Assembly (NCBI GenBank): GCA_014382705.1
Contig: JACNJE010000095.1
Coordinates: 303 to 64,302 of the forward strand
Source of the DNA: Verrucomicrobiota bacterium
GTDB lineage: Bacteria; Verrucomicrobiota; Verrucomicrobiia; Limisphaerales; UBA1096
Reading direction: 5' to 3'
DNA length: 64,000 nt
Positions 4,141 through 61,428 of the stretch are shown here, piece after piece (the first letter of the stretch is position 1; the number at the start of each line of letters is the position of its first letter). A program made the translations under genes and the position numbers. The notes under the pieces are model-generated. The model saw only the letters and a list, made by a program, of their open reading frames with translations. It ran no database searches and was not told where the DNA came from.

Positions 4141-6246
4141 ATGGTTTGGTTGATGATGACCCCTCGTACCATACTTATTCTGGCCTGTGCCGTGATGTTT
4201 CATGGAGCAGCCGTTGGTGTGTCGTTGTCGGCCTCGCGCGTGGACGCGCTGCTGGCGACAGACAACCAGGGCGGCGGCGGGGTGGCGCTTGGCCAAGCGC
4301 TGGACGACCTGGCCTTTCTGCGCAAGGCCACCCTCGACATGGTGGGGCGGATCCCGACTCACGCGGAAATTCTGCAGTATCAGCGGTGGCCGTTGGCCAA
4401 GCGGCGGGCGATGCTGGTTGAGCGGCTGCTCAAGGATGACGGGTTCGCCGACCGCTGGACGGTGTTCTTCGCGGACCTGCTGCGCATCCGCAGCCGGGCC
4501 GAGGGTGGCAACCGGCTGCTCGCTTACGTGCACCAGTCGATCGAGTCCGGCAAGCCGTGGGATATCATGACGCGGGAATTGATCGCGTCCAGCGGCTCGG
4601 CCGGCAAGGCCCCGTCGGTCGGGTTCTTGTTGGCGGACGATTCCGACCCGATGGCGATGGCTGCCGCCACGGGGCAGATTTTCATGGGCGTGCGCATGGC
4701 CTGCGCGCAGTGCCACAACCACCCGTTCGACAAGTGGCGCCAAAAACAGTTTTACGAGCTGGCCGGTTTCTTCGGAAAAACCCGGCAGGTCGAAAGCCGG
4801 CTCAGCAATAAGACCTACGTCACCGAGGGGGAGGAAATGAAGGTGCTGTGGCCGCCGGAACGCCGCAAGCCGAAGCAGCGGTTCCCGGTGGCACCCAAGT
4901 TTCCGTTCCCGATCGATGACACTGCGGCCAAGCCGGACCACCTGAAACGACTCGAGGCGTTGCGGGCCGGGGAACTGAATGCGGACAAAAAGCAGAGGGA
5001 AACCGACGCGCTGGATGCGTTGATCGATGCCGTGGGCGCACCCGAATCGCCCGGAGCCGAGCCGGCCGGCCTCGACGTGGCCCGTGAAGCGAAGGCGGAC
5101 ATCCGCAAACTCAATGTCCAGGGCGACCTGTACCGGCGCAGCGAGTTGCGCACCGAGTTGGCCCGGATGGTGACCCATCCCCAAAACCGCTACTTCGCGC
5201 GAAACCTCGTCAACCGCGTCTGGGCAGAATTGCTGGGGCGCGGCTTTTACATGCCGATCGACGACTACCAGGGCGAGGTCACGCACCCGAAAACCGTCGA
5301 GCACCTGTGCGACGAGTTCGTCGCCAACGGCTATGATGTGCGATTCCTTTTCCGGACGATTCTGGAAACCGACGCGTACGCCCGCGCGCCGCTCGGTGCG
5401 GAGGCCGGGAACGAGGCGCGGGAGGCGTCGCAGGCGGCTTTCGCCTCCGGCATCACGCGCCGGATGGTGAGCGAGGTGCTCTACGACAGCATCGTGATCG
5501 CCGGTCACCTGCAGGATTACAAATGGCCGAAGGGCGCCAACGTGCGGGCGTTCGAGCGGCGGGTGCGCGTGCCGCTCGACCCCGATCCCGAGGCGGCGGC
5601 ACCGGCGGAAGCCGAAGCGGAGCTTGGCCAAGCGGAGATAAAAATGGCCGCCAAGCCCAAGCCGTACGACTTGGAGCAGGTCATCTCGCTGAACTTCGAC
5701 AAGTTGGCGACGTCCGATCTGGAACAGGACTTGGGCCGGATGAAGGTGATGTCGGATCAGGAACTCGAGGCCAAGCGGATGGCCGAGATGGCCCGGAAGA
5801 AAAAATCGCTCCGCCGCCGGTACACCTACAAGACCGTGACGGAGGAGGTCGACGACAACCCGCGCTTCTCCAGCTCGATGCGCATGGCCACCCCGGCCGC
5901 GCCGTCGCATTTTCTGCGCGTATTCGGGCAGCCGTCCCGCGACGGGCTGGGCGAGTTCCGCGAGCACACCCCGTCGATGCGCCAGGCGCTGATGATGCTC
6001 AACGGCAAGGCCACGCACGAGGCGTCGCGCGTCGGGCCTTACGAGCCGATCCACCGGCTGCTGACCGGCGAAGGCAAAAACTTGGCCAAGGCGGTGGAGC
6101 TGGCCTACCTCGAGACCCTGACCCGCAGGCCAAGCGCGGAGGAACAGGCCGAGGCATTGGCCGTGCTTGGCCAAGCGCCGCTGGAGGGGATGGCCGACCT
6201 GCGCTGGGTGCTGCTCAACAGCCACGAATTCCGTTACCTCCCGTAA
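4141..6246 (+). CDS. DUF1549/DUF1553 (PSD1) domain protein, secreted
   Basis: Signal peptide MMTPRTILILACAVMFHGAAVG, the CAQCHNHPFDKW motif typical of DUF1549, and a C-terminal ...LRWVLLNSHEFRYLP typical of DUF1553. The start is chosen at the Met preceding the signal peptide; the ORF opens at 4078. Confidence 0.85.
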   Translation: MVWLMMTPRTILILACAVMFHGAAVGVSLSASRVDALLATDNQGGGGVALGQALDDLAFLRKATLDMVGRIPTHAEILQYQRWPLAKRRAMLVERLLKDDGFADRWTVFFADLLRIRSRAEGGNRLLAYVHQSIESGKPWDIMTRELIASSGSAGKAPSVGFLLADDSDPMAMAAATGQIFMGVRMACAQCHNHPFDKWRQKQFYELAGFFGKTRQVESRLSNKTYVTEGEEMKVLWPPERRKPKQRFPVAPKFPFPIDDTAAKPDHLKRLEALRAGELNADKKQRETDALDALIDAVGAPESPGAEPAGLDVAREAKADIRKLNVQGDLYRRSELRTELARMVTHPQNRYFARNLVNRVWAELLGRGFYMPIDDYQGEVTHPKTVEHLCDEFVANGYDVRFLFRTILETDAYARAPLGAEAGNEAREASQAAFASGITRRMVSEVLYDSIVIAGHLQDYKWPKGANVRAFERRVRVPLDPDPEAAAPAEAEAELGQAEIKMAAKPKPYDLEQVISLNFDKLATSDLEQDLGRMKVMSDQELEAKRMAEMARKKKSLRRRYTYKTVTEEVDDNPRFSSSMRMATPAAPSHFLRVFGQPSRDGLGEFREHTPSMRQALMMLNGKATHEASRVGPYEPIHRLLTGEGKNLAKAVELAYLETLTRRPSAEEQAEALAVLGQAPLEGMADLRWVLLNSHEFRYLP

Positions 6247-6259
6247 CACCAAAACGATC

Positions 6260-7525
6260 ATGAAAGAGACAGGATGCCTTGATTATCAATTGACCCGGCG
6301 GCGCATGATGCAGGCGACCGGGGCGAGCCTTTTGGGGATGCCGGTGGCGCGCCTTCTCGCCGCGCACCACACGTCGGCCGCCGCCAAGGCCAAGCACGTC
6401 ATTCTATTCTGGAACGGCGGCGGCATGAGCCACGTCGACACGTGGGATCCCAAGCCGGGCCGTCCGGTGCAGGGTGACTTTTCCGCCATCAACACCTCCG
6501 CCGACGGCGTCCAGATCAGCAGCATCTTTCCAAACCTCGCCAAGCAGATGCACCACTGCGCGCTCGTGCGATCCATCGCCGGGACGAACGGCGCGCACGG
6601 CCGCGCGACGTACGAGCTGCAGACCAGCTACAACATGGACCCGTCGCTGATCCACCCCGGCCTCGGCTCGATGGTCGTTCACGAGAAGGAACGGCTCGGC
6701 GACCTGCCGTCGTTCATCACCATCAACGGCCAGGCGCCCAGGTCCGGCTACCTCGGCCAGCGCTGTGCCGCCTATTTCATCGGCGAGCCGGGCGAGAAGG
6801 ATCCGTACCTTGCCTTCCCCGCCGGCATCAACCAGTTGCGCGGCAACAAGCGGCTGGACCTGCTGGCCCGCATGAACACCCGCACCACCCGGCGGAGCGG
6901 CAACACCAACTTCAAGGCCACCGAGACGGCCATCAAGGAGGCGGTCGCGCTGATGAAGAGCCCGACACTGAACGTGTTCGACCTCGACAAGGAGAACCCG
7001 GACACGCTGGCCCGCTACGGCGACACCGACTTTGGGCGGGGCGCACTGCTCGCGCGCAAGCTGGTCGAGACCGGCGTGCGCTTCGTGCAGGTAAACCGCG
7101 GCGGCTTTGACACCCACTCCAACAACTTCCCGGCGATGGAAAATCACGGGCTCGAGATGGACCCGGCGCTGGCGGCGCTGATCGAGGACCTGGCCGCCAG
7201 CGGCAAACTCGACTCGACCGTCGTGCTGGTGCTCAGCGAGTTCGGGCGCACCCCGCGCATCAACAACAACGCCGGGCGCGACCACCACGCGAGCTGTTTC
7301 AGCTGCCTGATCGCCGGCGGCGGCATCCGCGGCGGCCGGGTCGTCGGCGCCTCCGACCGGGACGCGATGGAGCCGGCCGAGCGCCCGGTCAAGCCAAGCG
7401 ACCTGCACGCCACCGTCTGCCACGCGCTTGGCATCGACCACGAAAAGGAAGTCTACACCCCGCAGGATCGGCCGATGGTCCTGGTTCGCGAGGGCGCCAA
7501 GCCGGTGAAGGAACTGTTCGCCTGA
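6260..7525 (+). CDS. DUF1501 domain protein (sulfatase-fold, Tat-type signal)
   Basis: TRRRMMQATGASLLGM, VILFWNGGGMSHVDTWDPKP and SEFGRTPRINNNAGRDHH. It lies 13 nt after the PSD1 gene, the canonical PSD1-DUF1501 pairing. Confidence 0.85.
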   Translation: MKETGCLDYQLTRRRMMQATGASLLGMPVARLLAAHHTSAAAKAKHVILFWNGGGMSHVDTWDPKPGRPVQGDFSAINTSADGVQISSIFPNLAKQMHHCALVRSIAGTNGAHGRATYELQTSYNMDPSLIHPGLGSMVVHEKERLGDLPSFITINGQAPRSGYLGQRCAAYFIGEPGEKDPYLAFPAGINQLRGNKRLDLLARMNTRTTRRSGNTNFKATETAIKEAVALMKSPTLNVFDLDKENPDTLARYGDTDFGRGALLARKLVETGVRFVQVNRGGFDTHSNNFPAMENHGLEMDPALAALIEDLAASGKLDSTVVLVLSEFGRTPRINNNAGRDHHASCFSCLIAGGGIRGGRVVGASDRDAMEPAERPVKPSDLHATVCHALGIDHEKEVYTPQDRPMVLVREGAKPVKELFA

Positions 7526-9963
7526 TGCCGGGACCCATGCCACGACCGCGCCGCCGTCCATGGCGGCGTTTTTGTGTCGGGCGGCTTTTGTTGCCCGCGT
7601 TGGGCGGCGCCTTGGCCGTTTCACTCGCGCTTGGCCAAGCGGCGAAGGAGACCAAGCCGGGGCCACCGCGCGGGTCGATCGTCGAGGATCGCGCCGCACG
7701 CAGGCTGCTCGAGGCCGGGGATCTGCGGATGGATGCCGGAGAGAGCGACAAGGGACTCGAGCTGTGGCGCTCGGTCATCGAACGGTATCCTCTGAGCAAA
7801 GTCCGGTTCCTGGCCCACATGAAACTGGGTGAGCACCATCTCACCGTGCTGGCGGATCATGCCAAGGCGCGCGCCCACTTCGAGGCGGTTTATTCGGTCG
7901 AAAACCGGGACGAAGACCAGCGGGCGCTGGCCCTGTTGAAGACCGGTGTCTGCCTGTACGAGGCCCGGCAGTACGGGCAATGCTTCAAGATTTTCCGGCA
8001 AGTCATCGGGGACTACCCCGTGTCGCGGCACGTGAACCGCGCCTACTACTTCATCGGCCTCGGCCACTTCAAGCAGGGCCACTACGGGCGCGCAATCGAC
8101 GCGCTGGAAAAGGTCGGCACGGTGACCTCAACCAACCGGCTTGGCCAAGCGAAGCTCGAGATCGGCAAGCGCCTGTTCATCAAGGTCGAGGACGCCGATC
8201 TCGCGGTGCTGAAAAAGGACGAGACCGTTCGGGCAACCTGCAAAACCACCGGCGGCGATGAGGAAACGGTCGACTGCCTCCCGCTTGGCCGCAACGTGCG
8301 GGTGGTGCTCGGCTCCACTGCCACCCGGCTGGGCCGCCCGAGCGCGAACAACGGCGTGTTGGAGGTTTCCGGCCGGGATGAAATCAGCGTCCGCTACAGC
8401 GACGAGCACACGGCCGGCGGCCAGTTGAACCAGGAACGCCTTCGCAGGCTCACCGTTGCGGGCAACGCCGCGGCGCGGATCATGGACGGCGCCTTCGTCG
8501 ATCCCATGGACGGCGTGGTCGTTGGCAAACAGGTGAACGTCGAGATTGTGGATGCGGACCGGGACCAGACGGATGACGCCGACTGGGTAGAGGCACAGGT
8601 GAAGCTGTACCGGAAAAAAACCGCTGCCGAGATTGAGGAGGAGGCCAACGAGCGCGCCGCCGAGGAGGCGCTTAACAGGGAAGCCGAGGGACGGGTGGTC
8701 GCCGAGGATGCCCCGAAAAAGGAACTCAGCGATGAGGAAAAATTCCAATTGCGACACCACCTGATCGACCAGGCCCGGCTGGTGGCCACCGAGGTCGCGG
8801 TGGAATCGGCCGACAGCGGACCGCCGCCACCCGGCGAACCGGAAGCCCCGGCGGAGGCACTGTCGCCCGGTGACTTGAGCGGCGATGCCAAGCCGAACAG
8901 TGGATTCGTCGCGCTCGTGGAGGAGGAGGCCCGGGACGATTCCATCCACACCGGGTTGTTCCAAGGCTCGCTCCCCGTGCGTCAGGCGCGGGAGGTCGTG
9001 GCCGGCGACGCGGTGCTGCAGGCCGTGCCGGGGGACATCGTGCGGGTCGAGTACCTCGACCAACTCAACACGACGCCGGCACCCCGGCGGCTCTCGGCGC
9101 GCGCGGTCTGCATCGAGGGCAGCCTCGGCGACGTGCGGGTGGCCAAGGCGCAGATTCCCGACGAGGATCTCCGGTTGCGGACGAAGCTCAAGACGGCTCG
9201 CGCCCTGACCAAGATAGGCAGCCATTACAAGGAATTCGGGCTCGACGATCCCGCCCGCATCAAGTTTCGGGAGGCGCTGGAGGTGGCCGAGGAGGCGGCC
9301 GCGCGCGGCCGCGAACTCCAGAGTCCCGTGCTGGAACAATGCTACGTGCAGCTTTGGGAAATCTATTTTGCCCTCGACGACCTGCGCCTCGCGGTGGCGA
9401 TGAGCCAGCGTTTGATGCGCGAGTTTCCGGAGAGCACCTTCATCGACGACGCGATGCTCAAGCAGGCCGAGATCGCCCGCAAACAGGGCGGCTTCCGGGA
9501 AGCCATCGCGCTCTACGGCAGCCTGCTCAAGCTCAACGCGAGCACCCTGCGCGACGAGGCGCAGTTCGGCATCGCCGTGTGCTATGAAAAAATGGCGGAA
9601 GCCGCCACCGGCTCGCGTTCGCAGTCGTACTACGAGAAGGCGTTCGAGAATTACCAGAAAGTGTACGAGCAGTTCCCGGAGAGCGGCCGGGTCGGGGATG
9701 CCGTGGCGCGGGCGGCGAACTACTTTTACCAGCGCCAGGATTACCAGCGGGCCATCGACGTGTTCGAAGGCGTCATCGCCAACCACCCGGACGCCAACTT
9801 CCTCGATGTCATCCATTTCAACTACGGCCGCTGCCTGTACCGCGTCGACCGCAAAAACGCCGCCCGCCAGCAATTCGACCTGCTGGTGGCCGATTATCCG
9901 GAGAGTAAACTGGCCGAGGAGGCCAAGCGCATCAGCGACGCCCTCGTAAAGGCCGGGTTTTAA
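7525..9963 (+). CDS. secreted TPR-repeat protein (812 aa) with central DxDxD beta modules
   Basis: The start overlaps the DUF1501 stop by 1 nt. Signal peptide ends ...AVSLALGQA. TPR-like helices sit at both ends. Central modules include FIKVEDADLAV...ISVRYSDEH and VNVEIVDADRDQTDD. Confidence 0.8.
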   Translation: MPGPMPRPRRRPWRRFCVGRLLLPALGGALAVSLALGQAAKETKPGPPRGSIVEDRAARRLLEAGDLRMDAGESDKGLELWRSVIERYPLSKVRFLAHMKLGEHHLTVLADHAKARAHFEAVYSVENRDEDQRALALLKTGVCLYEARQYGQCFKIFRQVIGDYPVSRHVNRAYYFIGLGHFKQGHYGRAIDALEKVGTVTSTNRLGQAKLEIGKRLFIKVEDADLAVLKKDETVRATCKTTGGDEETVDCLPLGRNVRVVLGSTATRLGRPSANNGVLEVSGRDEISVRYSDEHTAGGQLNQERLRRLTVAGNAAARIMDGAFVDPMDGVVVGKQVNVEIVDADRDQTDDADWVEAQVKLYRKKTAAEIEEEANERAAEEALNREAEGRVVAEDAPKKELSDEEKFQLRHHLIDQARLVATEVAVESADSGPPPPGEPEAPAEALSPGDLSGDAKPNSGFVALVEEEARDDSIHTGLFQGSLPVRQAREVVAGDAVLQAVPGDIVRVEYLDQLNTTPAPRRLSARAVCIEGSLGDVRVAKAQIPDEDLRLRTKLKTARALTKIGSHYKEFGLDDPARIKFREALEVAEEAAARGRELQSPVLEQCYVQLWEIYFALDDLRLAVAMSQRLMREFPESTFIDDAMLKQAEIARKQGGFREAIALYGSLLKLNASTLRDEAQFGIAVCYEKMAEAATGSRSQSYYEKAFENYQKVYEQFPESGRVGDAVARAANYFYQRQDYQRAIDVFEGVIANHPDANFLDVIHFNYGRCLYRVDRKNAARQQFDLLVADYPESKLAEEAKRISDALVKAGF

Positions 9964-9972
9964 AGAAACGAA

Positions 9973-12900
9973 ATGTCCGGACGGATCAACGATTGGGTTC
10001 GAGGCACCGCCGCCGCGGTGATGGCGCTGGCAACGGTCGCGCTTGGCCAAGCGCAAGAGACGCCCGGCCCGGCCAAGACGGCGCAGCAGATCACCGCACT
10101 GCAGCTGAAGCTGCGCCAGTCAGCGGACGATTCAAAACAGGGCGCCAAGCTGCTGCTGGAACTGGCCGACCTGGCCGACGACCACGGCCGGCCGTTCACG
10201 CTGATCCGCGCGGCCAAGCGCTTCGTGGTGGCCCACCCGGGGCACCTGCGCCAGCCGGAACTCATGCTCAAGCTGATCGACGCCCAACTCGTCACCGGCC
10301 GCGACAGCGACGCCCTCTCGACCGCCCGGCAGTTCCTCTCGCGCCATCCCGAACATCCGTCTGTGGCGGAGGTGCACCGGTTGCTCGCCGCGGTGCTGGA
10401 GCGCGACCGGCTGCACAGTTCGGCGGCGGCGGAATGGACCAAGGCGTTCGAGGGCGGCACGGGGCATCCCGGCGACGCGGCGCGCGCGGTGCTGCTCCAT
10501 CGGCGTGAAGGCAGCCACCGGTCGTACGCCGAGGCGGCCGCCCTGTCGGCCCGGCTGCTGACGGAGGACACCGACCCGGCGACACGGCGCGAGGCGGGCT
10601 GGCTCGCGATCGACTCGGCCAGGCGCTCGGCGAATCAAGGCGTCATCATCGAGACGGGCGAGCGCATCGCGGACGCAAATGTGCGCCTGGGCGGAGAGCG
10701 GCAGGTCGCCCTGCACACCGCGTTGGCCGCCGCGTACTGGGGACGGAAGGAAGCCAAGCCGGCCGTCGCCCATTACTCCGAGGCTGTGAAACTCGACCCG
10801 GTGTATCCCCGTTTCAAGGCGTACTTCGAGGTGGCCAACGGCGCCGCGCTGCCCGCGGCCGCCATGCAGTCCATGTTCGACCTGTTTGAGCAGCAGACCT
10901 TTCCCGGCAACGAAACCGCAACGATCCTCGGCTACTTCGCCGCCGCCAAGGCGCGGGAGGAGAAAACCACCGAGGCGGCTGCCATGGCGTTGCGGGCGGC
11001 GAGGATCGCCCCGGCGATCCACCAGTCACCCCGCAAATACGTCCGCTGGGCGGTCGAGACAAGCACCGGCTTTCCCGAGATCGAGCGAAACCTGAAGGCC
11101 ATCATCGACGCCCCCGGGGGCGACCCGTTTTATGCGCACTTCGCGCTGGCCTTCGACCTGTACCGCGACCGGATGAAGCGACCCGGCCTCGCACAGGAGG
11201 CGGTGCGCCGGATGATCACCGAGTCGCCCGCCGACAGCAGCGACATGACGGGGGCGATAAACTGGCTGCTCGCGGCGGCACCGTCCGACGCCATCTTCAA
11301 CGCCGACGCGAAACTCATTCATGACACCGCCGTGCGGCATGTGCGGCTTGCCGCCTTTCGCAATTTCCAGCGGGATTGGCTGAAGCAAAACCGGGGCAAC
11401 AAAAAATGGCGCAGCCGCGTGCAGACAATGAACCGCCTGGCCAAGGATTACGCCGCCCTCCCGGAGGTGAAACTGTGGACCGACAGCACAGCCTCGGGAA
11501 ACAAGGCGGCCGAGGCGCGGGAATCGTTGCTGGCCGGAACCTTGACCGACGCGGCGCGAAACGACCTGCTTGCCCGGCAGGCGTACGACTACCGGCACAG
11601 GCTCAAGCCCCGCGACAAATCGATCGACTATTACCGCCGCTTGGCCAAGCGCGTCCCGGAGGACGCCGCCGTCGGCCGCGCCTGGCTCGATGCCGCCCAC
11701 CACTACGGCGACCACGAGGCACGCGGCGAGGCGATCCGCTTCCTGCTTGGCCAAGCGCCGTCGGCCAACGATCCGCACAGTTGGATCCTGATGCTCGACG
11801 GCAGCGAACGGCTCGGGGACACCGGCTTGGCCAAGGCAGTGTCCGACTGGATCGGCAACTCGCAGGCGCAGCACGGCCCGACCCAGGAACGGGCGGGCGA
11901 GATCGGCGAACGTCTGGGCCGGATGGGACTTGCCGCCGAGGCGGCGGCGCATTGGGAGAAGGCGGCATTCATCGACCTCGGCTCGGACGAGGCCCGGAAA
12001 TGCATCGCCAACCTGTTGAAAGGCGAGCAATCCGCCGAGCACCGGGGCGCGCTTTTGGGCCGCTGCCTCGAGCAAGTCACGGCCAATCACGGCCCATACG
12101 CCGCCTGGCGGGCGGGGGAGTATTTCGAGGCCGCCGATTGGGACGCGTTCGAGAACACGCTGCTGACCGCGCGCCAGGCCAGCGACGAGCACATTTTCTT
12201 CCCGTGGAACATGGGCAGCGACCCGGCGCTGGGCTGGGTGGACGACATTCGCGGCGACGCCGGGATGGATGACGAGACCCGCCGCCGGTTGTTGTCCGTC
12301 ATCGAGTCGGTGCACGCCGGGCTGGCCTCGGCCTCGGCCCGGCTCGCGCTCGAGGAACTCATGGGCGAATCCGGGAGCCCGACGATGGCCAGCCAGAAGG
12401 CGGTCTGGCAGGCGGTCCTCTGGTCGGCGGATCACCCGAGCCATTGGGATCATCTCATGCCGTACGCCCGGCGCTTCGTCTCCACCGGCCGCCATGCCCA
12501 GGCAGCCACCCTGCTCACCGCCATGCTGCACAAGATTCCGCGTGCGGACGAAGGGCGGAAGAAAACCGCGCGCACCATGCTGACCAAGCTGTTCACCGTG
12601 ATGAGCGAAGCGGAGCTGGACCTCGACGAGGACAACCCGCTCGCACCGCTGCTGAAGATTTCGCTGCTGCTGCAGATCGGAGACGCCGAGTCTGCGGCGA
12701 GCCAATACGTGAAACACCGCAGCCTATTCGAGCAACGCTTTCGCGAACTCCCGACCCGCATCCTGCTGTTTGCCGCGCGGACAGAGATGGCCGCCGGCAG
12801 CGAGGAGGGGTTGTCGCGCACCGAGGAGATGCTGCGCCTCTGGCTCGTGCACAACACCGAGAACAAACAGGCCACACCGGAGGACCAGGCGGCGGTGCAA

Positions 12901-17817: not shown

Positions 17818-17822
17818 CCCGG

Positions 17823-17844: not shown

Positions 17845-17886
17845 CACTTTGGGGGGTGCGCTTGGTACGTTCCGCAGCCGAAACCG

Positions 17887-19112: not shown

Positions 19113-19115
19113 CGC

Positions 19116-46318: not shown

Positions 46319-46321
46319 GGC

Positions 46322-47857: not shown

Positions 47858-47938
47858 GATAAAATGGGTACGGCTGCAGGCTGCAGCTCGGCCGGGGAGA
47901 GTGGCGGTCGCGCTTGGCCCTGTAAAGCCGGATCGCCG

Positions 47939-48604
47939 CTACTCGCGGTGGAGCCGCCAAAACTGCACGCGGCCTTCAACCCGCAGGAAGGTGGACACCG
48001 CGCCGCCGGTTCCGACCACCGCCTCGACGGTCTCCCAACTCTCGAGGTCGTCCGATTTCTGCAGCAGGAACTCGTCGCCGTCCGTACCCTCCCACTGAAT
48101 CTCCACCGCTCGGTGAACACCGGTCAACTTGCCAGCCGGCTCCTCACCGCCACGGCCGCCGACATCGACCGGGTCGCCGCTGGGTTTCTTTTTAGCGAGC
48201 TTGGTGGCGAGCGTGAGGGCTATAGCGTCGTCATCCGTGCCGACGAAAATTTTCTGAAATCCGTCGATAAAATAATGTTGATCGCCGCCCTTCCTCGAAT
48301 AGGCGCGGATGGACAGGTAGTAATTCATGCGCGGCTTGCGCTGGGCCGAGAAATGCACGTCGAGCATCGAGTCCGCCGTGATGCTGAGGTCGAGATCCTC
48401 GAACACGACCTGGTCCACCAGCGTCGCCGGGAAATCCGCCAGCAGCGGGTCATACTCGTAGAGCCGTGCATCCACGTAGATGCCGAGCATCTTCTGCTTG
48501 GTCAGCGGGAACGTCAGGTGCACCACCCCCTCCAGCGGCCCCGCCTGCACCTTGGCCAAGCCGGCGGCAAAAAAGGCGGCAACCAAAATCAGTCGCAAGT
48601 TCAT
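47939..48604 (-). CDS. hypothetical secreted protein
   Basis: Signal peptide MNLRLILVAAFFAAGLAKVQA. No recognised domain. Sits in the operon between the DUF1552 and sulfatase genes. Confidence 0.5.
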   Translation of the reverse strand: MNLRLILVAAFFAAGLAKVQAGPLEGVVHLTFPLTKQKMLGIYVDARLYEYDPLLADFPATLVDQVVFEDLDLSITADSMLDVHFSAQRKPRMNYYLSIRAYSRKGGDQHYFIDGFQKIFVGTDDDAIALTLATKLAKKKPSGDPVDVGGRGGEEPAGKLTGVHRAVEIQWEGTDGDEFLLQKSDDLESWETVEAVVGTGGAVSTFLRVEGRVQFWRLHRE

Positions 48605-48634
48605 CGTCGCAGAGACTCCAAGCCCACCCAAGCG

Positions 48635-49945: not shown

Positions 49946-49987
49946 TTTAGTTCGTTTCGACTGATGCTGAATCGGTGACGCCGTGAG

Positions 49988-54127: not shown

Positions 54128-54195
54128 GCGGTTGCGGTTTGGATTGCAGGCGTCATCCTTCCCTCAACGTTGCCGCCCGTCAAGCCGCGCCGGGG

Positions 54196-54846
54196 TTATT
54201 CGGACTTGGCCGGGAATCGCTTGTCGATGATCGATGTGTGTGCCGGCAGTTGGATCCGGTTGAGGTCGATCCGTTTTCCGTCGACGATCAATTCGATATC
54301 GCACCGCGCACGCCGGAGATCCAACCGCCGTCCGTCGCCCTCCTTGTAAACCTTCCACTTGCCATTCGCGTTGTGGACAAATTCCGGCAGATGCCCGTTT
54401 TTGTCGCGGAGCGAGTCCGGCCAGGGCGGCCCGATAGTCAGCACACTTTCGCCGGTCACATTGGGCTTGGTATTTGGGGGATAACTTTTGTTGTCCGGCG
54501 TGATCTTTGTGCCGGTTAAAGGCGAGATGATCCGCACGCCGGTCTTCATCGTGGTGCCTAGTTTTTTGTTCGGGCTGCTGTGCAGCGTCAACGTGCCGCC
54601 CTTGCTTTTGAACTTGAGCAGATGGGGCCAGATGATCTCGAACTCCCTGCGGTTGGTGATGTTTATCTCGTGAATCTCGAACGCCGAGTGCACCAGCGTG
54701 CGCGACTGTTTTCGCAGCGGCTCAAACTCCTTCGGCCACGACTTGGGCCAAGCCCCCTCGCTCATGACTCCGAACAGCGCAAACACCCCATTCGCCGCCG
54801 CCGTGAGCGCGACCAAAAACAACAACCTCCGGATGGTTTGCTTCAT
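54196..54846 (-). CDS. hypothetical secreted protein
   Basis: Signal peptide MKQTIRRLLFLVALTAAANG. GC lower than its neighbours. No recognised domain. Confidence 0.45.
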   Translation of the reverse strand: MKQTIRRLLFLVALTAAANGVFALFGVMSEGAWPKSWPKEFEPLRKQSRTLVHSAFEIHEINITNRREFEIIWPHLLKFKSKGGTLTLHSSPNKKLGTTMKTGVRIISPLTGTKITPDNKSYPPNTKPNVTGESVLTIGPPWPDSLRDKNGHLPEFVHNANGKWKVYKEGDGRRLDLRRARCDIELIVDGKRIDLNRIQLPAHTSIIDKRFPAKSE

Positions 54847-54889
54847 AAAAGCAAGACGCAGGGTTTCCGGAAATCTTAGGAGCTACGGC

Positions 54890-55822
54890 TTATTTTTTTT
54901 CGGTCGCCTGAAAGCGGTCGAGGGATTTTTGCAGCTGTACTTTTTCCTGCTGATCCCGGGCGAGGCTGACCGCCTTTTTTTGCAGCGTGATCGCTTCGTC
55001 GACTTTGCCGCTCTCGAACAACGCCAACGCGTAGGTGTCGATGATCTGCGGGTGGCTGCCTTTGGTGAGGTCGTACGCCGCCTTGGCTGCGGCCCGGGCA
55101 AAGTCGAGATCGCGATATTTTAGCGCATCATCGGTCAGCACTGCCCAGGCGATGTTGCTGGACACCTCGGCGTTTGCCTTCACGAGGCTCAAAAGTTCTT
55201 TGCCAATCTTTCGTGTCTCGTCGTCTTTTTTGCCCTCAACGAGGCGTTCCCAGTACTCGACGGAAAGTTGCTGCAGCCGAATCTGCGCGCGTTCCTTGGC
55301 GATCTCTTCCTCGAGGTCGAAGGTGCCTTTCACGAGCCGGTCGATCACGTCGTCGAGACCGCTCTTCGGGTGGCCGACCCAGACGATGCGGTCTTTTTGA
55401 TCGACGACGAACGTTGCCGGGATGCCGGTCTGCCCGAAGGCGCGCATGTAGGCTTGAGACATCGTGTCGCCTTTCTCGATGGCGACGGTGTACTCCATCT
55501 GTTTGCCCAATCGGCGGACGAACCGCTCGACGGTGGCCTTGGGCTCGTCGGTGATGCCGACCACGGTCACGCCCTTGCCCTTGTATTTTTCCTGCAGCTG
55601 GGTCAGGTGCGGGATGCTGTCGCGGCACGGCCCGCACCACGTGGCCCAAAACTCGAGGATGTGGATTTTCTTTTCGCCCGCCTTGGCCAAGTCCACCGGC
55701 TTGCCCTTGACCCAGTGCTCGATCTGCAGCTTGGGCGCCTTGGAGCCGATGTTGGCCGCGTCGGTGGTCGAGATGGCTCCGGCCAAGGCCGTGCCGAGGA
55801 GGGTTGAAAAAATCGTTCTCAT
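54890..55822 (-). CDS. TlpA/redoxin-type thiol:disulfide oxidoreductase fused to a C-terminal TPR-like helical domain
   Basis: Signal peptide, the FWATWCGPCRDSIPHL (WCxxC) motif, and a helical C-terminal half. Confidence 0.75.
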   Translation of the reverse strand: MRTIFSTLLGTALAGAISTTDAANIGSKAPKLQIEHWVKGKPVDLAKAGEKKIHILEFWATWCGPCRDSIPHLTQLQEKYKGKGVTVVGITDEPKATVERFVRRLGKQMEYTVAIEKGDTMSQAYMRAFGQTGIPATFVVDQKDRIVWVGHPKSGLDDVIDRLVKGTFDLEEEIAKERAQIRLQQLSVEYWERLVEGKKDDETRKIGKELLSLVKANAEVSSNIAWAVLTDDALKYRDLDFARAAAKAAYDLTKGSHPQIIDTYALALFESGKVDEAITLQKKAVSLARDQQEKVQLQKSLDRFQATEKK

Positions 55823-56030
55823 ATTGCTGGCCGGGCAGTCTTGGCCAACCGGCTGCGCGTGGCGAACTCATTTTCGGCCCTGGCCAAAAAAACTGCCGGT
55901 CGAATGGTCGTGATTGAGCGTGCCGGGTTCATTGGGTTGGCTGTTTTTGGCGTTGCGCGCATCAACGAGGCTTTAGCATACCGCCGCTCCGAATTGGCAT
56001 GATGCATGCCTTTCGGTTCATCTATCTCCG

Positions 56031-56052
56031 GCCCCGCTTGGCCAAGCGGGGC
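56031..56052. repeat. 22-bp perfect palindrome GCCCCGCTTGGCCAAGCGGGGC immediately 3' of the ORF ending at 56055
   Basis: Read directly. It starts 3 nt after the stop codon. No T-tract. Confidence 0.9.
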
Positions 56053-56054
56053 GG

Positions 56055-56510
56055 CTAAATATTCTCCTTTGACGCGTCGGGGTCTTCCCCGGCCGGCTTC
56101 TTTGCGCCGGGGGGCGGCTCGACCACGACAACCGGCAATGGGTACCGCAACTTCATTACGTCGTCGACGATCACCTCCACGGTGTACACGCCGGGTGCCT
56201 CAAACTTGGTGCCGGCGAACACCGCGATGTTGGTCGCGTGATGCGCCGGGTCGCGCAGCATAAACTTGGTCTCGCACTTGCGGATGACCGTCTCCTGGTC
56301 AGGCGCGGTGAGGCGAATGTTCTCGTGGAATTCGCCCACACCGGCGACCCAGCGGGTGAACACGCACAGTTTGCCGGCGACGATCGGCAGCTTGGGCACG
56401 CGGATGGCACCGATGATGCCCAGCGCGATAAAGTTGCCGGTGACCTCCTGCCGCACGTCTTCGCACAGCACGGAGCATTGCAGGTCGGGGAGTATTCGGG
56501 AGGCTTGCAT
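56055..56510 (-). CDS. hypothetical protein (151 aa)
   Basis: Clean ORF with a plausible beta-rich sequence. No motif recognised with confidence. Confidence 0.5.
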   Translation of the reverse strand: MQASRILPDLQCSVLCEDVRQEVTGNFIALGIIGAIRVPKLPIVAGKLCVFTRWVAGVGEFHENIRLTAPDQETVIRKCETKFMLRDPAHHATNIAVFAGTKFEAPGVYTVEVIVDDVMKLRYPLPVVVVEPPPGAKKPAGEDPDASKENI

Positions 56511-56522
56511 TCTGTTGTAAAA

Positions 56523-57422
56523 CTATCGGCCGCCCCCGCCGGTTTGCTGCCCGGCGGCGCGGACGGTGTTGCGCATCAGCATGGCGATCGTCATCGGGCC
56601 GACGCCGCCGGGGTTCGGGGTGATTTTTCCGGCGACCGGCTGCACGGCGGTGAAGTCGATGTCGCCCACGAGCCGGTAACCCTTCTCGGCGGCGGGATCC
56701 TCGACGCGATTGACGCCAACGTCGATCACCGTCGCGCCCGGCTTGACCATGTCGGCCTTGACGAACCCGGCCACGCCCATCGCCGCCACAAGGATGTCCG
56801 CCCGCCGGCAATGCCCCGCCACGTCTCGGCTGCGCGAATGGCAGAGGGTGACCGTGGCGTTGGCGTGCTGTTTTTTTTGGCAAAGAATCGCCGCCATCGG
56901 CTTGCCGACAATGTTGCCCCGGCCGAGGATCACCACCTCCACGCCCTCGATGGTCACACCGGAGCGAATCAGCAACTCGTGCACGCCGCCGGGGGTGCAC
57001 GGCACGAAGCCGCCGGCCTCGCCGAGCATCAGTTTGCCGGCGTTCACCGGGTGAAAGCCGTCGACATCCTTCGCCGGCGACACGGTGGAGAACACCTTCG
57101 TCTCGTCGATGTGCCCCGGCAGCGGTGCCTGCACGAGCACGCCGTGCACGGCGGGGTCGATGTTGAGTTTTTCGAGCAGCTCCAGCAGTTCCGCCTCCGG
57201 CGTCTCCTCCGGCAGCACGGTAGTCTCGGAGCGGATGCCCAGTTTGGCCGCAGCCCGTTCCTTCATGCCGACGTACGCCCTCGACGCCGGATCGTCGCCG
57301 ACGCGGACGAACCGAAGCCCCGGCTCGACGCCGGCCGACTTGAGCGCGACGACACGGGACTCGGTGTCCGCGTGAACTTCCTGGGCGATCGCGCGGCCGT
57401 CTATCAGGTTATCCGCCGGCAT
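56523..57422 (-). CDS. folD: bifunctional methylenetetrahydrofolate dehydrogenase / methenyl-THF cyclohydrolase
   Basis: ...VGDDPASRAYVGMK..., ...PLPGHID..., ...GRGNIVGKPMA..., ...PGGVGPMTIAML. Confidence 0.95.
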   Translation of the reverse strand: MPADNLIDGRAIAQEVHADTESRVVALKSAGVEPGLRFVRVGDDPASRAYVGMKERAAAKLGIRSETTVLPEETPEAELLELLEKLNIDPAVHGVLVQAPLPGHIDETKVFSTVSPAKDVDGFHPVNAGKLMLGEAGGFVPCTPGGVHELLIRSGVTIEGVEVVILGRGNIVGKPMAAILCQKKQHANATVTLCHSRSRDVAGHCRRADILVAAMGVAGFVKADMVKPGATVIDVGVNRVEDPAAEKGYRLVGDIDFTAVQPVAGKITPNPGGVGPMTIAMLMRNTVRAAGQQTGGGGR

Positions 57423-58582
57423 CAGGGAATGGTCTTGAGCGTGCGCACGTCGAGCAGCGGCAGCGCGGGCCAGCGCGGATCGATAGCCTCGATGCCGGTG
57501 AGGACAACCCGGCGGTTGCGCAGCATGCTCATCAGCCGCTCGAAGGTGATCGGCTCGCCGTCGCCGCTGTCGGCGGTCTTGAGCGGCCCGGAGTCGGAGG
57601 AGTAAAGATAGTTGATCGTCCGGCCGTTGTCGTCGAGCAGCTCGAACCGGCTCGGGGCCTTTGGGCTTCGGAAAAAGCGCCGCTTGATTCTGCCTTCGCG
57701 GGTGACGATGCGTGGCGGCGGCACCGGCAGCTTCGCCTCGGTGACGGCGGGGGCCGTTTCCAGCTTGGCTTCCTCGGCGTCCTCCGGGTTGCCCATCGGC
57801 GGCTTTTGCGTTTCGGCGGCCTCGGTACCGTCGGCGGCTTCGACCACGACGACCTCCGGCTCTGGCGGGTCCGGCATGTCCCCGGGCTCGGGTGTTGTCT
57901 CTGGTTCGCCCTTGACCTCGGCGACCGCTTCCGGTTCGGCCGAGGTTTCCGCCGACTCCGTTGCTTCAGCAACGTCTGCATTGCCCGGCTTGGCCTCGGG
58001 GGCCGCTTGCGGCTCTTCCGTTTCGGCCGCCTCGGCCGGTTTGGCCTCGGGCGTTTCCTCCGGCTGGGTCTCTTCGGCCGCCTCCGCTTGGCCAAGCTCA
58101 ACGAACTGGGCCGCGATGTAGGCGTGCGCGCCGGCGGGATGCTCGATCTCAATCCAGTCGCCGGCGGTGCGTTTTTCCTTCACGGCATCGCCCTTGGCCA
58201 AGCGCCCGACGATGCTGAACCGCTCGCCGCCCCCGGCGCGGACGTTGAGCTTGCTGGTGGTCACCTTGCCCTCCTTGACGAAACTCATGTGCACCCACGT
58301 TTGCCCGGCGGCCGGCATGGCGATCCTGAGCCAGTCGGCCGGCTCGCCGTCGCGCGGCGGGGCGACGGTCACCTTGGCCAGCACCGTCACCCGGTCGCCC
58401 TTTCGCAACTGGGTGACACGCTCGCCGATCAGGCTGGCCCGGGCGCGGACGTTGACGCGGTCGGCTGAGACGGTGGCCGATTCGGGGGGGGCGACTTCGC
58501 TGACAACCTCCTTGGCGCTCAGGCCTGAAACGGCCACGAGCCAAGCCAGCGCTGGGACGGGGAAACGGCCAACTGCTTTCAT
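57422..58582 (-). CDS. secreted SH3b-domain protein with a long acidic Glu/Pro/Ala-rich linker
   Basis: Signal peptide MKAVGRFPVPALAWLVAVSGLSA. Two SH3b-like segments (VNVRARAS...GDRVTVL and LNVRAGGG...GDAVKE). A low-complexity run of about 110 aa. The ORF-track N-terminal extension to 58771 is judged spurious. Confidence 0.7.
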   Translation of the reverse strand: MKAVGRFPVPALAWLVAVSGLSAKEVVSEVAPPESATVSADRVNVRARASLIGERVTQLRKGDRVTVLAKVTVAPPRDGEPADWLRIAMPAAGQTWVHMSFVKEGKVTTSKLNVRAGGGERFSIVGRLAKGDAVKEKRTAGDWIEIEHPAGAHAYIAAQFVELGQAEAAEETQPEETPEAKPAEAAETEEPQAAPEAKPGNADVAEATESAETSAEPEAVAEVKGEPETTPEPGDMPDPPEPEVVVVEAADGTEAAETQKPPMGNPEDAEEAKLETAPAVTEAKLPVPPPRIVTREGRIKRRFFRSPKAPSRFELLDDNGRTINYLYSSDSGPLKTADSGDGEPITFERLMSMLRNRRVVLTGIEAIDPRWPALPLLDVRTLKTIP

Positions 58583-58616
58583 TGGACGCCGAGTGTGAAA
58601 CGACCCCGCACCCGTG

Positions 58617-59360
58617 TCAATTCCGCCGGGCGGCTCGCGGCGTTTTTCCGGGCGGCCTGAGACACGACGCGACCTCGGTCCGGCTGAGCGGACGCCACTT
58701 TCCGGGAGGCAACTCGCCCAGCTTGACCGGCCCGACCGCCACCCGCTGAAGGCGCAACACCCGGAAGCCAAGCGCTTTAAACATCCGGCGCACCTCGCGG
58801 TTTTTGCCCTCGGCCAGCACCAGTTCCGCCTCGCTGCGGCTGTTGTTGGCGGTCAGGAGCCGGGCGCGCTTGGCCTTCAAAAAATCCCGCTTGTCGCGCA
58901 GGCCGGCCGTGAGCCGCTCCAGCGCCTCCGGCCCGAGCCGCTTGGCCACGGTCACCCGGTACGTTTTGAGCAGGCCGTGACTCGGGTGCGCCACTCGCTG
59001 GCAAAACTCCCCGTCATTGGTCAGCAGGATCAGTCCCTCGCTGTCGGCGTCGAGCCGGCCAACGGTGTAAAGGTGTCCCCAGTCCGCCGGCAACAGGTCG
59101 AACACCGTCCGGCGATCATGCGTGTCGCGGCGGGTGCAGAGAAACTTGGGCGGCTTGTTCAGGGCGACGAAGCGCTTGGCCAACGGCTTGAGCGGCCGGC
59201 CGTCGAGCGACACCGCGCTCGTCGCGGGATCCACCTTCGTGCCGAGCAGCCGGACGACCTGGCCATCGACAGTGACGCGGCCGGCGACGATCAGCTTCTC
59301 GCCTTCGCGGCGTGAAGCCACTCCGGCCTCGGAGAGATATTTTTGGAGTCGAACCGTCAC
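58617..59360 (-). CDS. RsuA/RluB-family pseudouridine synthase (S4 domain + catalytic domain)
   Basis: RLQKYLSEAGVASRREGEKLIVAGRVTVDG (S4 domain). ...VGRLDADSEGLILLTNDGEF is the catalytic Asp motif. Confidence 0.9.
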   Translation of the reverse strand: MTVRLQKYLSEAGVASRREGEKLIVAGRVTVDGQVVRLLGTKVDPATSAVSLDGRPLKPLAKRFVALNKPPKFLCTRRDTHDRRTVFDLLPADWGHLYTVGRLDADSEGLILLTNDGEFCQRVAHPSHGLLKTYRVTVAKRLGPEALERLTAGLRDKRDFLKAKRARLLTANNSRSEAELVLAEGKNREVRRMFKALGFRVLRLQRVAVGPVKLGELPPGKWRPLSRTEVASCLRPPGKTPRAARRN

Positions 59361-59418
59361 CGCCGGGAGAGGGTGCGCGGTGGGATCGGGGTCGGGCGGG
59401 CGTGGGAACCGTGGACGA

Positions 59419-59574
59419 TTATTCCTCCGGCTTGGTCTTTTTCAGGCCGGTGATGCGGTCGCCCTCCTTGAGTTCGCCGCGTTTGCGCAGCAACTCCACG
59501 CGCTCATACCGGGTGAGCACAGTGCGCTTGGCTTCCGCCGCGCCGCCGACTTTCAGGCTGGGATGTTGTGACAT
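59419..59574 (-). CDS. small basic protein (51 aa), below the ORF-track size cutoff
   Basis: My translation is MSQHPSLKVGGAAEAKRTVLTRYERVELLRKRGELKEGDRITGLKKTKPEE. It resembles, from memory, the conserved 'small basic protein' family found in PVC bacteria. Confidence 0.55.
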   Translation of the reverse strand: MSQHPSLKVGGAAEAKRTVLTRYERVELLRKRGELKEGDRITGLKKTKPEE

Positions 59575-59690
59575 TTTCTTAAAAAACAGGCGATTTGGAG
59601 TCCCGCCGCCGAATTGCGGGCGCGGGAACCTACCACACCCCGCCCCGATTGCAACGGGTATTTTTTGGGCGGAGTTTTAAGTTTGAAGTT

Positions 59691-59870
59691 TCAAGTTTTC
59701 AGTAATACTTGAAGGTACTCCTTGATGGCGACTTGGATATTTTTCAGGGCCTCCTCTTCGGTCGCACCTTGGGACCAGCAGCCGGGCAAGGCCGGGCAAC
59801 CGACCGCGTAACCCTCTTCCGATGCCTTCAAGATCACTGGATAATCCAAGCACACACCGCCAAAGTTCAC
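59691..59870 (-). CDS. HicB-like (UPF0150) antitoxin-family small protein, non-ATG start, no adjacent hicA
   Basis: My translation is (V)NFGGVCLDYPVILKASEEGYAVGCPALPGCWSQGATEEEALKNIQVAIKEYLQVLLKT. The GY.A..P.LPGC.SQG.T.EEAL.N motif is characteristic of HicB/UPF0150. The start could be GTG at 59870 or the TTG at the L of LDYPV. Confidence 0.6.
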   Translation of the reverse strand: MNFGGVCLDYPVILKASEEGYAVGCPALPGCWSQGATEEEALKNIQVAIKEYLQVLLKT

Positions 59871-59943
59871 CCTTCGAGCAGGCTCGTCAAGGAATCAAAT
59901 TAGACTCAAGGTCGTTTCGAAACCCAGCGCTTGGCCAAGCGGT

Positions 59944-61428
59944 TTAGTTGAGTTCGCCGGGGGGGATTTCGTTGAGGGTGTAGTAGCCGACCGGGTGCAG
60001 GATCGGCAGGCCGTTGGCCGAGCGGACGCCCTCGGCGTGCAGCTCGTGGACATTCCCATGGATGAGGCTGTCCACGGTGAGGCGCACGGTTTTCGGGCCG
60101 GTGACCTCAACGCCCGTGATCTTCGGGGCCGTTTTGTCGACGACCGGGCTGCCGTAGTCGGCGCGGTAAATATAGGTGTAGGCGCTCATGCTGTAGGAAG
60201 CCAGGTCGCCGGCACTCACGGCGTCCACCTCATGCGTGAAGGTCAGTTCAAAGCCGTCCGGCTTGGCGCGCATCTCGTGGATCTCGAACGGCACGCCGCC
60301 CTTCCACGTGACGCGGTCGAGCGCGAACCGCTTGCCGCCCCGGGCGCCCCAGCCGCGGTCAGTGCCGCCGACAAACAGCGTGCCATTGGGATGCATATAG
60401 GCGCTGATGTTCCCGGAGCCGAAGCCCTTTAAAAACGAGAATGCCGCGCCCTGGTAGACGCCGTTGACCTTCTCGAGAAAGGCACGATTGACCACCGAGA
60501 AGGTCTGGTCGCAAACGAGCAACTGGTTCTTGAACGGGCCGAATTTGCCGTTGCTGTCGTAGGCGAAACCGCTGGTCGAGTTGCCCAGGATGCCGTGCGG
60601 GAACACGATGGCCGACGGCACGAGATTGGGGATTTTTGCCCGCTCGGCCACCCACCGGCTGTTGGTCTTCGGTTCGGTGGGGCGCTTGCCCATCGACGCC
60701 TTCGCCGCCGCAGTGTCGTACCAGCGGAAGCCCCCGGGGTGGCCTTGGAACGTCCCGTGCGAGAGTGGCTTGAGCGAGCTGGAGCCGTTCCACGGGCCTT
60801 GGTTGTCGGCGTAAAACGCCTCGCCCAAATGATTGAGACCGATGCCGCCCGGCGAGCGGATGCCGCTGGCGGTCGGGATGAGTTCGCCCTCTTTCGTCAC
60901 GCGCACGCACCAGCCACGATAGTCAATCTGGCTGGAAAACGAACCGGTGAGGCAGAGCACGATCCACATGTCGCCGTTCGGGTCGGGCCGGGTGCCGAAG
61001 GCGTACTCGTGGTAGTCGCCGGTGATGCCCCAGCCGTCATTAACCGTCTCGAAAACGTCGGCGCGGTCGTCGCCGTTGACGTCCCTCATGCGGGTCAACT
61101 CGCCGCGCTGGGTGCAGTAGAGCCAGCCGTCGGTGAAGGCGAGATTCAGCGGCTCGTGCAACCCCTCGGCGTAGAGGGCCCACTCGATCTTGTCCGGCGG
61201 GCCGAACGGGTCGGACAATACATAGACGTTACCGCGGCGGCCGCAGATCGCCAGCTTGCCGCCCGGCATCATCTCGATGCCGCTGGTCTCCACCACGACA
61301 CCGTCCGGCATCGGGATGGCGTCGATCTGGTAATAGTCGGACTCGGCCGGGTCGGCGGCGCGCGGGGCGACCGCTTGGCCAAGCGCAAGGCCGGCCAGCA
61401 GTGTGAAGCGTGTCACTTGGTTTATCAT
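59944..61428 (-). CDS. secreted beta-propeller 'membrane-bound dehydrogenase domain'-like protein (PQQ/sugar dehydrogenase-like fold)
   Basis: Signal peptide MINQVTRFTLLAGLALGQA. DYYQIDAIPMPDGVVVETSGIEMMPGGKLAICGRRGNVYV resembles the PVC putative dehydrogenase family. The ORF-track extension to 61989 is judged spurious. Confidence 0.65.
   Translation of the reverse strand: MINQVTRFTLLAGLALGQAVAPRAADPAESDYYQIDAIPMPDGVVVETSGIEMMPGGKLAICGRRGNVYVLSDPFGPPDKIEWALYAEGLHEPLNLAFTDGWLYCTQRGELTRMRDVNGDDRADVFETVNDGWGITGDYHEYAFGTRPDPNGDMWIVLCLTGSFSSQIDYRGWCVRVTKEGELIPTASGIRSPGGIGLNHLGEAFYADNQGPWNGSSSLKPLSHGTFQGHPGGFRWYDTAAAKASMGKRPTEPKTNSRWVAERAKIPNLVPSAIVFPHGILGNSTSGFAYDSNGKFGPFKNQLLVCDQTFSVVNRAFLEKVNGVYQGAAFSFLKGFGSGNISAYMHPNGTLFVGGTDRGWGARGGKRFALDRVTWKGGVPFEIHEMRAKPDGFELTFTHEVDAVSAGDLASYSMSAYTYIYRADYGSPVVDKTAPKITGVEVTGPKTVRLTVDSLIHGNVHELHAEGVRSANGLPILHPVGYYTLNEIPPGELN

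Follow-up and report, generated by a model that had tools for sequence, protein, structure and literature searches.

The 64 kb window analysed here, to whose full length all window counts refer, is a stretch of contig JACNJE010000095.1 from a Verrucomicrobiota bacterium, and it carries a dispersed family of palindromes built on the 14-base word CGCTTGGCCAAGCG. The window matches ENA ERZ24794639 NODE_3226 and identical Logan contigs at 100%, and is essentially a metagenomic contig. Contigs bearing the same FolD protein (L001-L004) are likewise 100% identical to the window, and therefore contribute no strain variation. Gene calling by an iterated codon-usage model yielded 47 genes, which take up 89% of the window and have a GC content of ~0.84 at third codon positions. 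The gene content is typical of the Planctomycetes-Verrucomicrobia-Chlamydiae group, with PSCyt/PSD proteins, DUF1501, sulfatases, N_methyl prepilins, and a urea transporter and urease cluster; the genes hosting copies of the palindrome are mostly backed by Pfam or by independent gene calls. Within genes the word is read chiefly as Leu-Gly-Gln (LGQ frame) or Leu-Ala-Lys (LAK frame), seldom as Trp-Pro (WP frame), and the LGQ reading recurs at the predicted ends of signal peptides.

Perfect copies of the 14-mer number 22, of which 17 are genic and 5 intergenic. Counts fall from 66 for the 8-mer core TTGGCCAA through 57 for the 10-mer CTTGGCCAAG and 36 for the 12-mer GCTTGGCCAAGC to 22 for the 14-mer and 5 for the 16-mer, whereas dinucleotide-preserving shuffles of the 64 kb give an expectation of 0.02 copies of the 12-mer. 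The family extends over positions 1718..63417 at a density of about 1 core per kb. Our own gene calls reproduce exactly the count given in the original prediction (22 copies, 17 of them genic, with 11 read as LGQA, six as LAKR and none as AWPS); the span it assigned to the family, 4286-61385, holds 21 of the 22 14-mers and misses the copy at 1718-1731. The cores of the 14-mers start at 4289, 7631, 10043, 14213, 17924, 19727, 20419, 32918, 47801, 50933 and 61375 in the LGQ frame, at 11641, 22607, 25885, 26945, 30740 and 41630 in the LAK frame, and at 1721, 36229, 45370, 56038 and 59931 between genes. There are more perfect 10-mers (57) than one-mismatch variants of all kinds taken together (22). 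The deviations of these variants lie mostly at outer positions (1-2 of each word length), and the central four positions are almost invariant.

The process that creates or preserves the palindrome acts on DNA. Among the LGQ tripeptides of the window proteins 23 of 31 are spelled CTT-GGC-CAA, against 0.46 expected, and other codon spellings make up just 8 of the 31; outside the motif, CTT accounts for 8% of Leu codons and CAA for 27% of Gln codons. Similarly, 30 of 41 LAK tripeptides are spelled TTG-GCC-AAG (2.1 expected), and both tripeptides occur 4-5 times more often than amino acid composition predicts. About 83-87% of the copies are genic and in frame, and 5-6 of the 22 14-mers fall in the non-coding 10.7% of the window. 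A DNA-level process had been proposed for the motif, and the rare-codon spelling, the use of two to three frames and the intergenic copies all support it. Selection for the peptides LGQA and LAKR themselves could be read from the tetrapeptide counts, which stand 15-35 times above composition (22 LGQA against 0.60 expected, 10 LAKR against 0.63), but one word here gives rise to two unrelated peptides, its invariant spelling runs against codon bias, and copies are also present between genes. Nor do the copies behave as a miniature mobile element inserting into genes: those lying in frame in conserved genes align to orthologues by substitutions, with no length change at most sites, and their flanks are unrelated and devoid of flanking repeats or target duplications. 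On the codon spelling and the orthologue alignments we reject both of these explanations as barely credible.

The distribution of copies over reading frames is strongly skewed. Genic 8-mer cores comprise 31 LAK, 25 LGQ and 1 WP in the window (n=57), and 133 LAK, 75 LGQ and 3 WP in other metagenome-assembled genomes, or MAGs (n=211); as had been predicted, usage is very far from 1:1:1 (pooled P ~1e-32). We compared these counts with a null built from background codon frequencies, with motif codons masked and codons taken as independent. It assigns LAK, LGQ and WP shares of 76%, 23% and 1.6% for the 8-mer in the window, of 73%, 26% and 1.3% for the 14-mer in the window, and of 70%, 28% and 2.5% for the 8-mer in the other MAGs. 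For the 17 genic 14-mers it predicts 0.23 WP copies, with a probability of about 0.8 of finding none, and for the other MAGs it predicts 5.2 WP cores against the 3 of 211 observed (P=0.24). The rarity of AWPS arises because TGG, CCA and GCT are generally rare in frame. Observed-to-expected ratios for the 8-mer are 26x (LAK), 71x (LGQ) and 40x (WP) in the window and 23x, 32x and 15x in the pooled data, the WP ratios resting on 1 copy in the window and 3 in the other MAGs. Enrichment over background is thus similar in all three frames, and there is therefore no evidence of a motif-specific purge of Trp-Pro. The third frame had been described as absent from genes, which is true of the 14-mers (0 of 17); a slightly shorter copy at 61846..61857 on the minus strand, one mismatch away from the 14-mer (CGCTTGGCCAAG), is nonetheless read GCC GCT TGG CCA AGG, or A-A-W-P-R, and lies in the context D-A-A-W-P-R-A-E within the DUF6797 domain of a Pfam-supported 518-aa cytochrome-c/PA14 protein.

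One reading of the original prediction has the DNA process blind to frame, making copies equally in all three, with purifying selection specifically removing Ala-Trp-Pro-Ser. Frame usage far from 1:1:1 agrees with such a scheme (P ~0.001 for 0 of 17 14-mers, P=1e-32 for 3 of 211 cores in other MAGs), as does the 14-mer being about 3 times denser in intergenic than in coding DNA; if intergenic DNA is used as a standard free of constraint, the WP frame is short of roughly 15 copies. Background codons alone, however, predict a WP share of 1.3-2.5%, and the share observed is 1.4-1.8% (1/57 and 3/211); the WP enrichment ratios are of the same order as those of the other frames, and genuine WP copies are found. 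Copies moreover appear to arise by substitution from near-matches, and their supply is therefore not frame-blind. We consider the selective removal of the Trp-Pro frame unlikely: such a purge is neither demonstrated nor needed, and the predicted frame filter is only partly supported. The departure from the null lies between the two common frames. LGQ exceeds LAK among long copies, by 11:6 in the window and 26:13 in the other MAGs against an expected ratio of about 1:2.5, and this over-use relative to LAK occurs despite the LGQ frame needing two rare codons. Probably the neutral [A/P]LGQA fits into more protein contexts than RLAKR with its three charges, which would account for the excess.

Signal peptides in the window were called by eye, aided by hydropathy, charge and an AxA heuristic and by family knowledge; all cleavage positions, marked below by a slash, are predicted. 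By this heuristic about 21 of the 47 window proteins carry Sec or Tat signals. Motif-encoded LGQ[A/G] ends six of them, those of an 812-aa TPR protein, a 2614-aa TPR protein, a sulfatase, a DUF7133 protein, the urea-binding protein UrtA and a Tat-type protein at 36315; with ExbB as a weak seventh, this makes 6-7 of the ~21, or roughly a quarter to a third. Perfect copies read as A-L-G-Q-A stand at the signal ends of the first four, whose signals all open with basic residues, run through a hydrophobic core and close on a small-x-small pattern. They are a 14-mer at 7628..7641 on the plus strand in the 812-aa protein (...GGALAVSLALGQA/AKE, that is ...SLALGQA/AKE), a 16-mer at 10039..10054 on the plus strand in the 2614-aa protein (MSGRINDWVRGTAAAVMALATVALGQA/QET, that is ...TVALGQA/QET), a 14-mer at 47798..47811 on the minus strand in the sulfatase (MRKLPLFVCVALGWAALGQA/VVG; independent 511-aa gene call, with the Sulfatase domain starting at residue 37) and a 14-mer at 61372..61385 on the minus strand in the DUF7133 protein (MINQVTRFTLLAGLALGQA/VAP; independent 494-aa call). 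The Tat-type signal (MKTTRRSFLG...VPGVALGQG) ends in A-L-G-Q-G, encoded by a 10-mer at 36393..36402 on the plus strand that is one mismatch away from the 14-mer; the orthologous locus L121 has a perfect 14-mer at this site.

The original prediction of LGQA at six or more signal ends thus stands as described for the four perfect copies and the Tat variant, and needs amendment for two further proteins. UrtA does have LGQA at its signal end, yet the perfect 12-mer to which this had been ascribed (34871..34882, minus strand) is read in the LAK frame as G-L-A-K-P; this copy is conserved at four orthologous loci. The signal ends in P-L-G-Q-A, which is encoded by the adjacent copy in tandem with the 12-mer, a one-mismatch 14-mer at 34857..34870 on the minus strand (CGCTTGGCCAGGCG). 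The match of UrtA to four urea-binding proteins of solved structure starts at residue 27-28, with the A of LGQA. In ExbB the motif is indeed present in the N-terminal extension, as a perfect 14-mer at 17921..17934 on the plus strand read as A-L-G-Q-A (MLNPSLILAQSALGQA/GGT; MotA_ExbB domain at residues 111-244), but this N-terminus is only weakly signal-like and uncharged. A 10-mer at 48551..48560 on the minus strand also lies within a predicted signal peptide, in the LAK frame (MNLRLILVAAFFAAGLAKVQA/GP, with GLAKVQA/G).

Enrichment at signal ends was checked on the window together with 51 loci of Verrucomicrobiota MAGs (248 complete genes), and the excess proposed in the original prediction was found. 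Signal-peptide zones contain 15 LGQ-frame 10-mers where 3.4 are expected, a 4.4-fold excess (p=1.4e-6), in a pooled test that missed three true window cases through start-codon calls. LAK-frame copies are not enriched there (6 against 4.7 expected), and about 80% of the LGQ-frame copies lie outside signal peptides. At least 9 loci of other MAGs have LGQ-frame copies at predicted signal ends: ...ISLSLGQALGQA/P in L026, with a tandem LGQALGQA, ...LSAPSLGQA/AKM in L042, ...ATVALGQA/QAQ in L045, ...LAGATLGQA/ASQ in L049, ...LSVALGQA/GAK in L052, ...LGLPLGQA/TER in L063 and ...CLVALGQA/AAA in L082, with the same pattern in the predicted signals of L112 and L114. Tandem copies within signal peptides thus occur both in L026 and in UrtA (GLAKPLGQA, window 34857-34882). 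The basic n-region of some signals (L045, L085, L100) is supplied by R-L-A-K-R copies, and MKPATFIPKVSRLAKRGGMFLAATVALGQA/QAQ carries both readings.

The motif had been proposed either to colonise sequence-tolerant, cleavable regions or to have been co-opted by the secretome, and the orthologues of the host proteins bear on this choice. UrtA orthologues 93-97% identical carry LAKP[L/I/V]GQ[A/S], in which the second copy is frequently disrupted; in one lineage, with 91-94% identity over the mature protein, the signal is unrelated and of the lipoprotein type, and the signals of more distant orthologues end in VSA, AQA and similar. DUF7133 orthologues at 90-92% identity have signals ending in ALGQA, AFGQA (GCG TTT GGC CAA GCG) and IFGQA, one at 86% ends in ALAQA, one at 79% from a 39%-GC genome ends in ALGQL and still has CTTGGCCAA, and those of lower identity have unrelated signals. 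In both families, then, mature proteins 80-97% identical are preceded by signal peptides that are unrelated or drifting. The copies in urease alpha have a comparable setting. A perfect 14-mer at 26942..26955 on the minus strand encodes R-L-A-K-R in a non-conserved patch aligned to NLRSA of Klebsiella urease, and both LAK copies of this gene lie in short non-conserved patches between blocks ~60-100% conserved with the Klebsiella enzyme.

Co-option would make LGQA a favoured signal-peptidase site, or would have the DNA or mRNA palindrome at the end of the signal-coding region aid export or expression. The 4.4-fold excess in signal-peptide zones, the share of window signals ending in LGQ[A/G] and the retention of the UrtA, 36393 and DUF7133 sites in the closest relatives can all be cited for it. 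Close orthologues nevertheless break the word and keep the signal (AFGQA, IFGQA, ALAQA, PIGQA, PVGQA, LGQS), more distant ones have unrelated signal peptides, LGQ hardly ever occurs in common codons, and most LGQ-frame copies lie elsewhere in proteins; an mRNA hairpin role was rejected, as the stem would be 5 bp and weak. The drift of orthologous signal ends and the near absence of LGQ in common codons therefore favour passive colonisation, and we hold co-option to be highly improbable. The evidence favours LGQA being merely compatible with the -3/-1 rule, with no sign of a preference independent of the DNA word. A mixed scheme also appears quite improbable, in which a HIP-type system that evolved independently of the cyanobacterial one, in a widespread clade of marine Verrucomicrobiota, has rewritten a sizeable part of the signal-cleavage regions, and at least some of the copies have then been retained because the common LGQA cassette, or the palindrome in DNA or RNA, aids export or expression.

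The palindrome is a feature of a clade rather than of one contig. An exact-match scan of one genome per species across 185,579 species returned at least 116 stretches, and among the matches listed nearly every multi-copy stretch comes from a marine Verrucomicrobiota MAG and has several copies per 8 kb. The 51 Verrucomicrobiota MAG loci among them (347 kb) hold 0.93 cores per kb, against 0.04 extra cores per kb in 65 listed loci of other taxa, which have the selected chance copy only. The motif occurs at about 1 per kb in at least about 20 marine Verrucomicrobiota MAGs, including MED711, ARS81, SP274, UBA6775, UBA673, ETNP1_MAG_26, Arabian9_MAG_18, several Tara bins, CB6_Bottom.37, GCA_036340115.1, GCA_018645885.1 and a "Pedosphaera" ALOHA bin. 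In a scan of viruses almost all matches were single chance copies. One viral contig of 13.7 kb (L196, IMGVR_UViG_3300032087_002358) has 8 TTGGCCAA cores and 4 10-mers, and may be a phage or prophage of the motif-bearing clade. Full-text literature searches returned no earlier description of TTGGCCAA or GCTTGGCCAAGC as an iterated element, only primers and unrelated surveys.

Sites of the motif are conserved between related genomes. At the syntenic orthologous locus L121, with 85% nucleotide identity, 7 of 9 window 10-mers are conserved against 28% of random 10-mers, a small sample; turnover amounts to 2 sites found only in the window and 5 found only in L121, the two loci mostly differing there by 2-5 substitutions within the word. 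In the sister lineage L122-L124 the corresponding genes contain fewer copies, and 10-mer conservation in the motif-poor L122 (2/5 against a 35% control, again a small sample) shows no excess. At 88% nucleotide identity over window 26000-35000, this lineage has 3 cores in 9.9 kb against 5 in the window, and the sites absent from it are one or two substitutions away from the motif. A 39%-GC relative, GCA_902559805.1, has 3 cores in 21 kb, and 13 kb of L126, a more distant relative, contain none.

The palindromic arms of intergenic copies are on the whole longer than those of genic ones, giving palindromes of 18, 22 and 16 bp at 45365-45382, 56031-56052 and 36227-36242, respectively; the copy at 59928-59941 is likewise intergenic. 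Three intergenic copies follow a stop codon at a distance of no more than about 20 nt. The 18-bp palindrome at 45365..45382 separates two convergent genes, just after the gene ending at 45389, and resembles the hairpin of an intrinsic terminator with a T-rich tail on the minus strand; a stop codon precedes the 22-bp palindrome at 56031..56052 by ~5-20 nt. Two copies 31 bp apart, in the LAK and then the LGQ frame, occupy a Pro/Ala-rich low-complexity linker (PGVRLAKPDAPAAPLGQAPAPAPAP) at 19690-19740 in a 225-aa protein without a Pfam match, a further case of copies in unconstrained sequence. The first 4000 positions of the window differ from the rest in GC content (0.52 against ~0.64) and have a weak or atypical coding signal, with a Fic/DOC fragment at 2112-2852 and two motif cores only (1721 and 1803), both between open reading frames; this region is probably an acquired island. 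The mature domain of UrtA is 81-89% identical to proteins attributed to very different marine groups, such as a SAR202 MAG (homologues P0028-P0120), and this sequence identity suggests that the urea transporter is either strongly conserved or has spread horizontally.

We propose that the word is an iterated palindrome of the same kind as HIP1 of cyanobacteria, reportedly the subject of work by Robinson et al. in 1995, that it extends across a clade of marine Verrucomicrobiota, that it is spread by a genome-wide DNA process, that its frames are set by codon usage, and that signal-peptide ends serve as its sinks; we put the probability of this reading at about 0.72. The process would push near-matches towards the perfect word and then keep the word there. 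Its most likely driver would be repair or conversion that is biased in a site-specific way and tied to a methyltransferase recognising the GGCC/TGGCCA centre, as proposed for HIP1, with an endonuclease of the same specificity as an alternative partner of the biased repair. This driver is suggested by analogy with HIP1 and with Dcm/Vsr repair; selection for a DNA-binding or architectural function, or a drive by uptake bias, would leave the same footprint in coding sequences. A genic copy would arise and persist only where the encoded peptide is acceptable, and the near-matches available in each frame would be set by ordinary codon and amino acid usage. The GCT-TGG-CCA (Ala-Trp-Pro) frame would then have almost no substrate and receive ~1-2% of the copies, the other two frames taking the rest, with the small and uncharged [A/P]-L-G-Q-A more widely tolerated than the charged R-L-A-K-R. 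By accident LGQA would make a legal signal-peptidase site, with Gly at -3 and Ala at -1 after a hydrophobic Leu. Signal ends are rich in Ala, Leu and Gly and otherwise almost unconstrained, and would therefore act as sinks for LGQ-frame copies.

Several observations weigh against this proposal or soften it. A crude six-frame scan of the window and ~55 loci (~0.5 Mb, MAG fragments only) found no C5 or N-methyltransferase motif, which at this scope is uninformative, and the one-mismatch spectrum, examined for an excess or deficit of TTGACCAA/TTGGTCAA as a signature of deamination, gave nothing clear. Biased repair and selection on a DNA function account equally well for the conservation of sites above background. 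In the null, codons are independent of one another, and WP copies number 4 in all, so that a moderate extra depletion or excess of this frame may exist. Both the signal peptides and their cleavage sites are heuristic predictions, and the DUF7133 protein might also be cleaved farther downstream (after ...PRA or ...LQA). The 51 MAG loci were selected for containing a 14-mer, and gene calls there cover 73% of the DNA.

The element is a HIP-like palindrome in Verrucomicrobiota with a previously unremarked niche in signal peptides. The purpose and origin of HIP1 have stayed open for about 30 years on data from a single phylum, and a second, unrelated palindrome supplies an independent comparison. 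It shares the population behaviour of HIP1, in that perfect copies dominate, conservation exceeds background and density differs between close relatives, and its hosts are uncultured marine Verrucomicrobiota ranging in GC from 39% to 65%. Among the questions that the comparison raises is whether motif density and a GGCC/TGGCCA-specific methyltransferase go together from lineage to lineage. The pattern of frames and signal peptides also provides a clean, quantitative example of a DNA-level drive reshaping tolerant protein regions, down to the cleavage sites of secreted proteins. In practice, LGQA at signal ends, or raised counts of LGQ and LAK, should not be taken for a protein motif in these genomes.

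HIP1 (GCGATCGC), beside which cyanobacteria have alternate highly iterated palindromes, and the Verrucomicrobiota word are both short GC-rich palindromes at about 1 per kb (PMC4390886, PMC5861425), which for HIP1 is the apparent saturation density (Elhai 2015, PMC4390886). One-mismatch variants of HIP1 deviate at outer positions (Elhai 2015, PMC4390886), and the one-off variants of the Verrucomicrobiota word likewise differ mainly there. Both words occur in coding and non-coding DNA, are enriched in every reading frame, employ non-preferred codons and have sites conserved between related genomes above control words. The Verrucomicrobiota word differs in sequence, in phylum and in length, with the core TTGGCCAA extended to 14 bp in place of 8. 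Its frame usage is very skewed because one of its frames needs Trp, whereas the HIP1 readings AIA, RS and DR are all easy to accommodate. To our knowledge, no association with signal-peptide ends has been described for HIP1. The uptake signal sequences and DNA uptake sequences (USS/DUS) of Pasteurellaceae and Neisseria resemble the Verrucomicrobiota word as iterated words that accumulate in genes by a DNA-level drive. In DNA uptake sequences frame bias tracks codon usage, tripeptides are inflated and poorly conserved residues are preferred (Findlay & Redfield 2009, PMC2817400). Tripeptide inflation is ~2-fold for USS/DUS and 4-5-fold for the Verrucomicrobiota word. USS/DUS are asymmetric and have a known driver in biased DNA uptake with recombination, while the Verrucomicrobiota word is a perfect palindrome; USS/DUS often form inverted pairs at terminators, and some intergenic copies of the Verrucomicrobiota word are terminator-like. 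The Dcm/Vsr system of very-short-patch repair leaves CCWGG over-represented in E. coli. It couples a methyltransferase with a repair bias, through which the palindromic target of the system becomes more frequent across the genome, and offers the simplest precedent for the proposed mechanism; its effect in E. coli is a modest skew of a 5-mer, against a several-thousand-fold excess of a 14-mer in Verrucomicrobiota.

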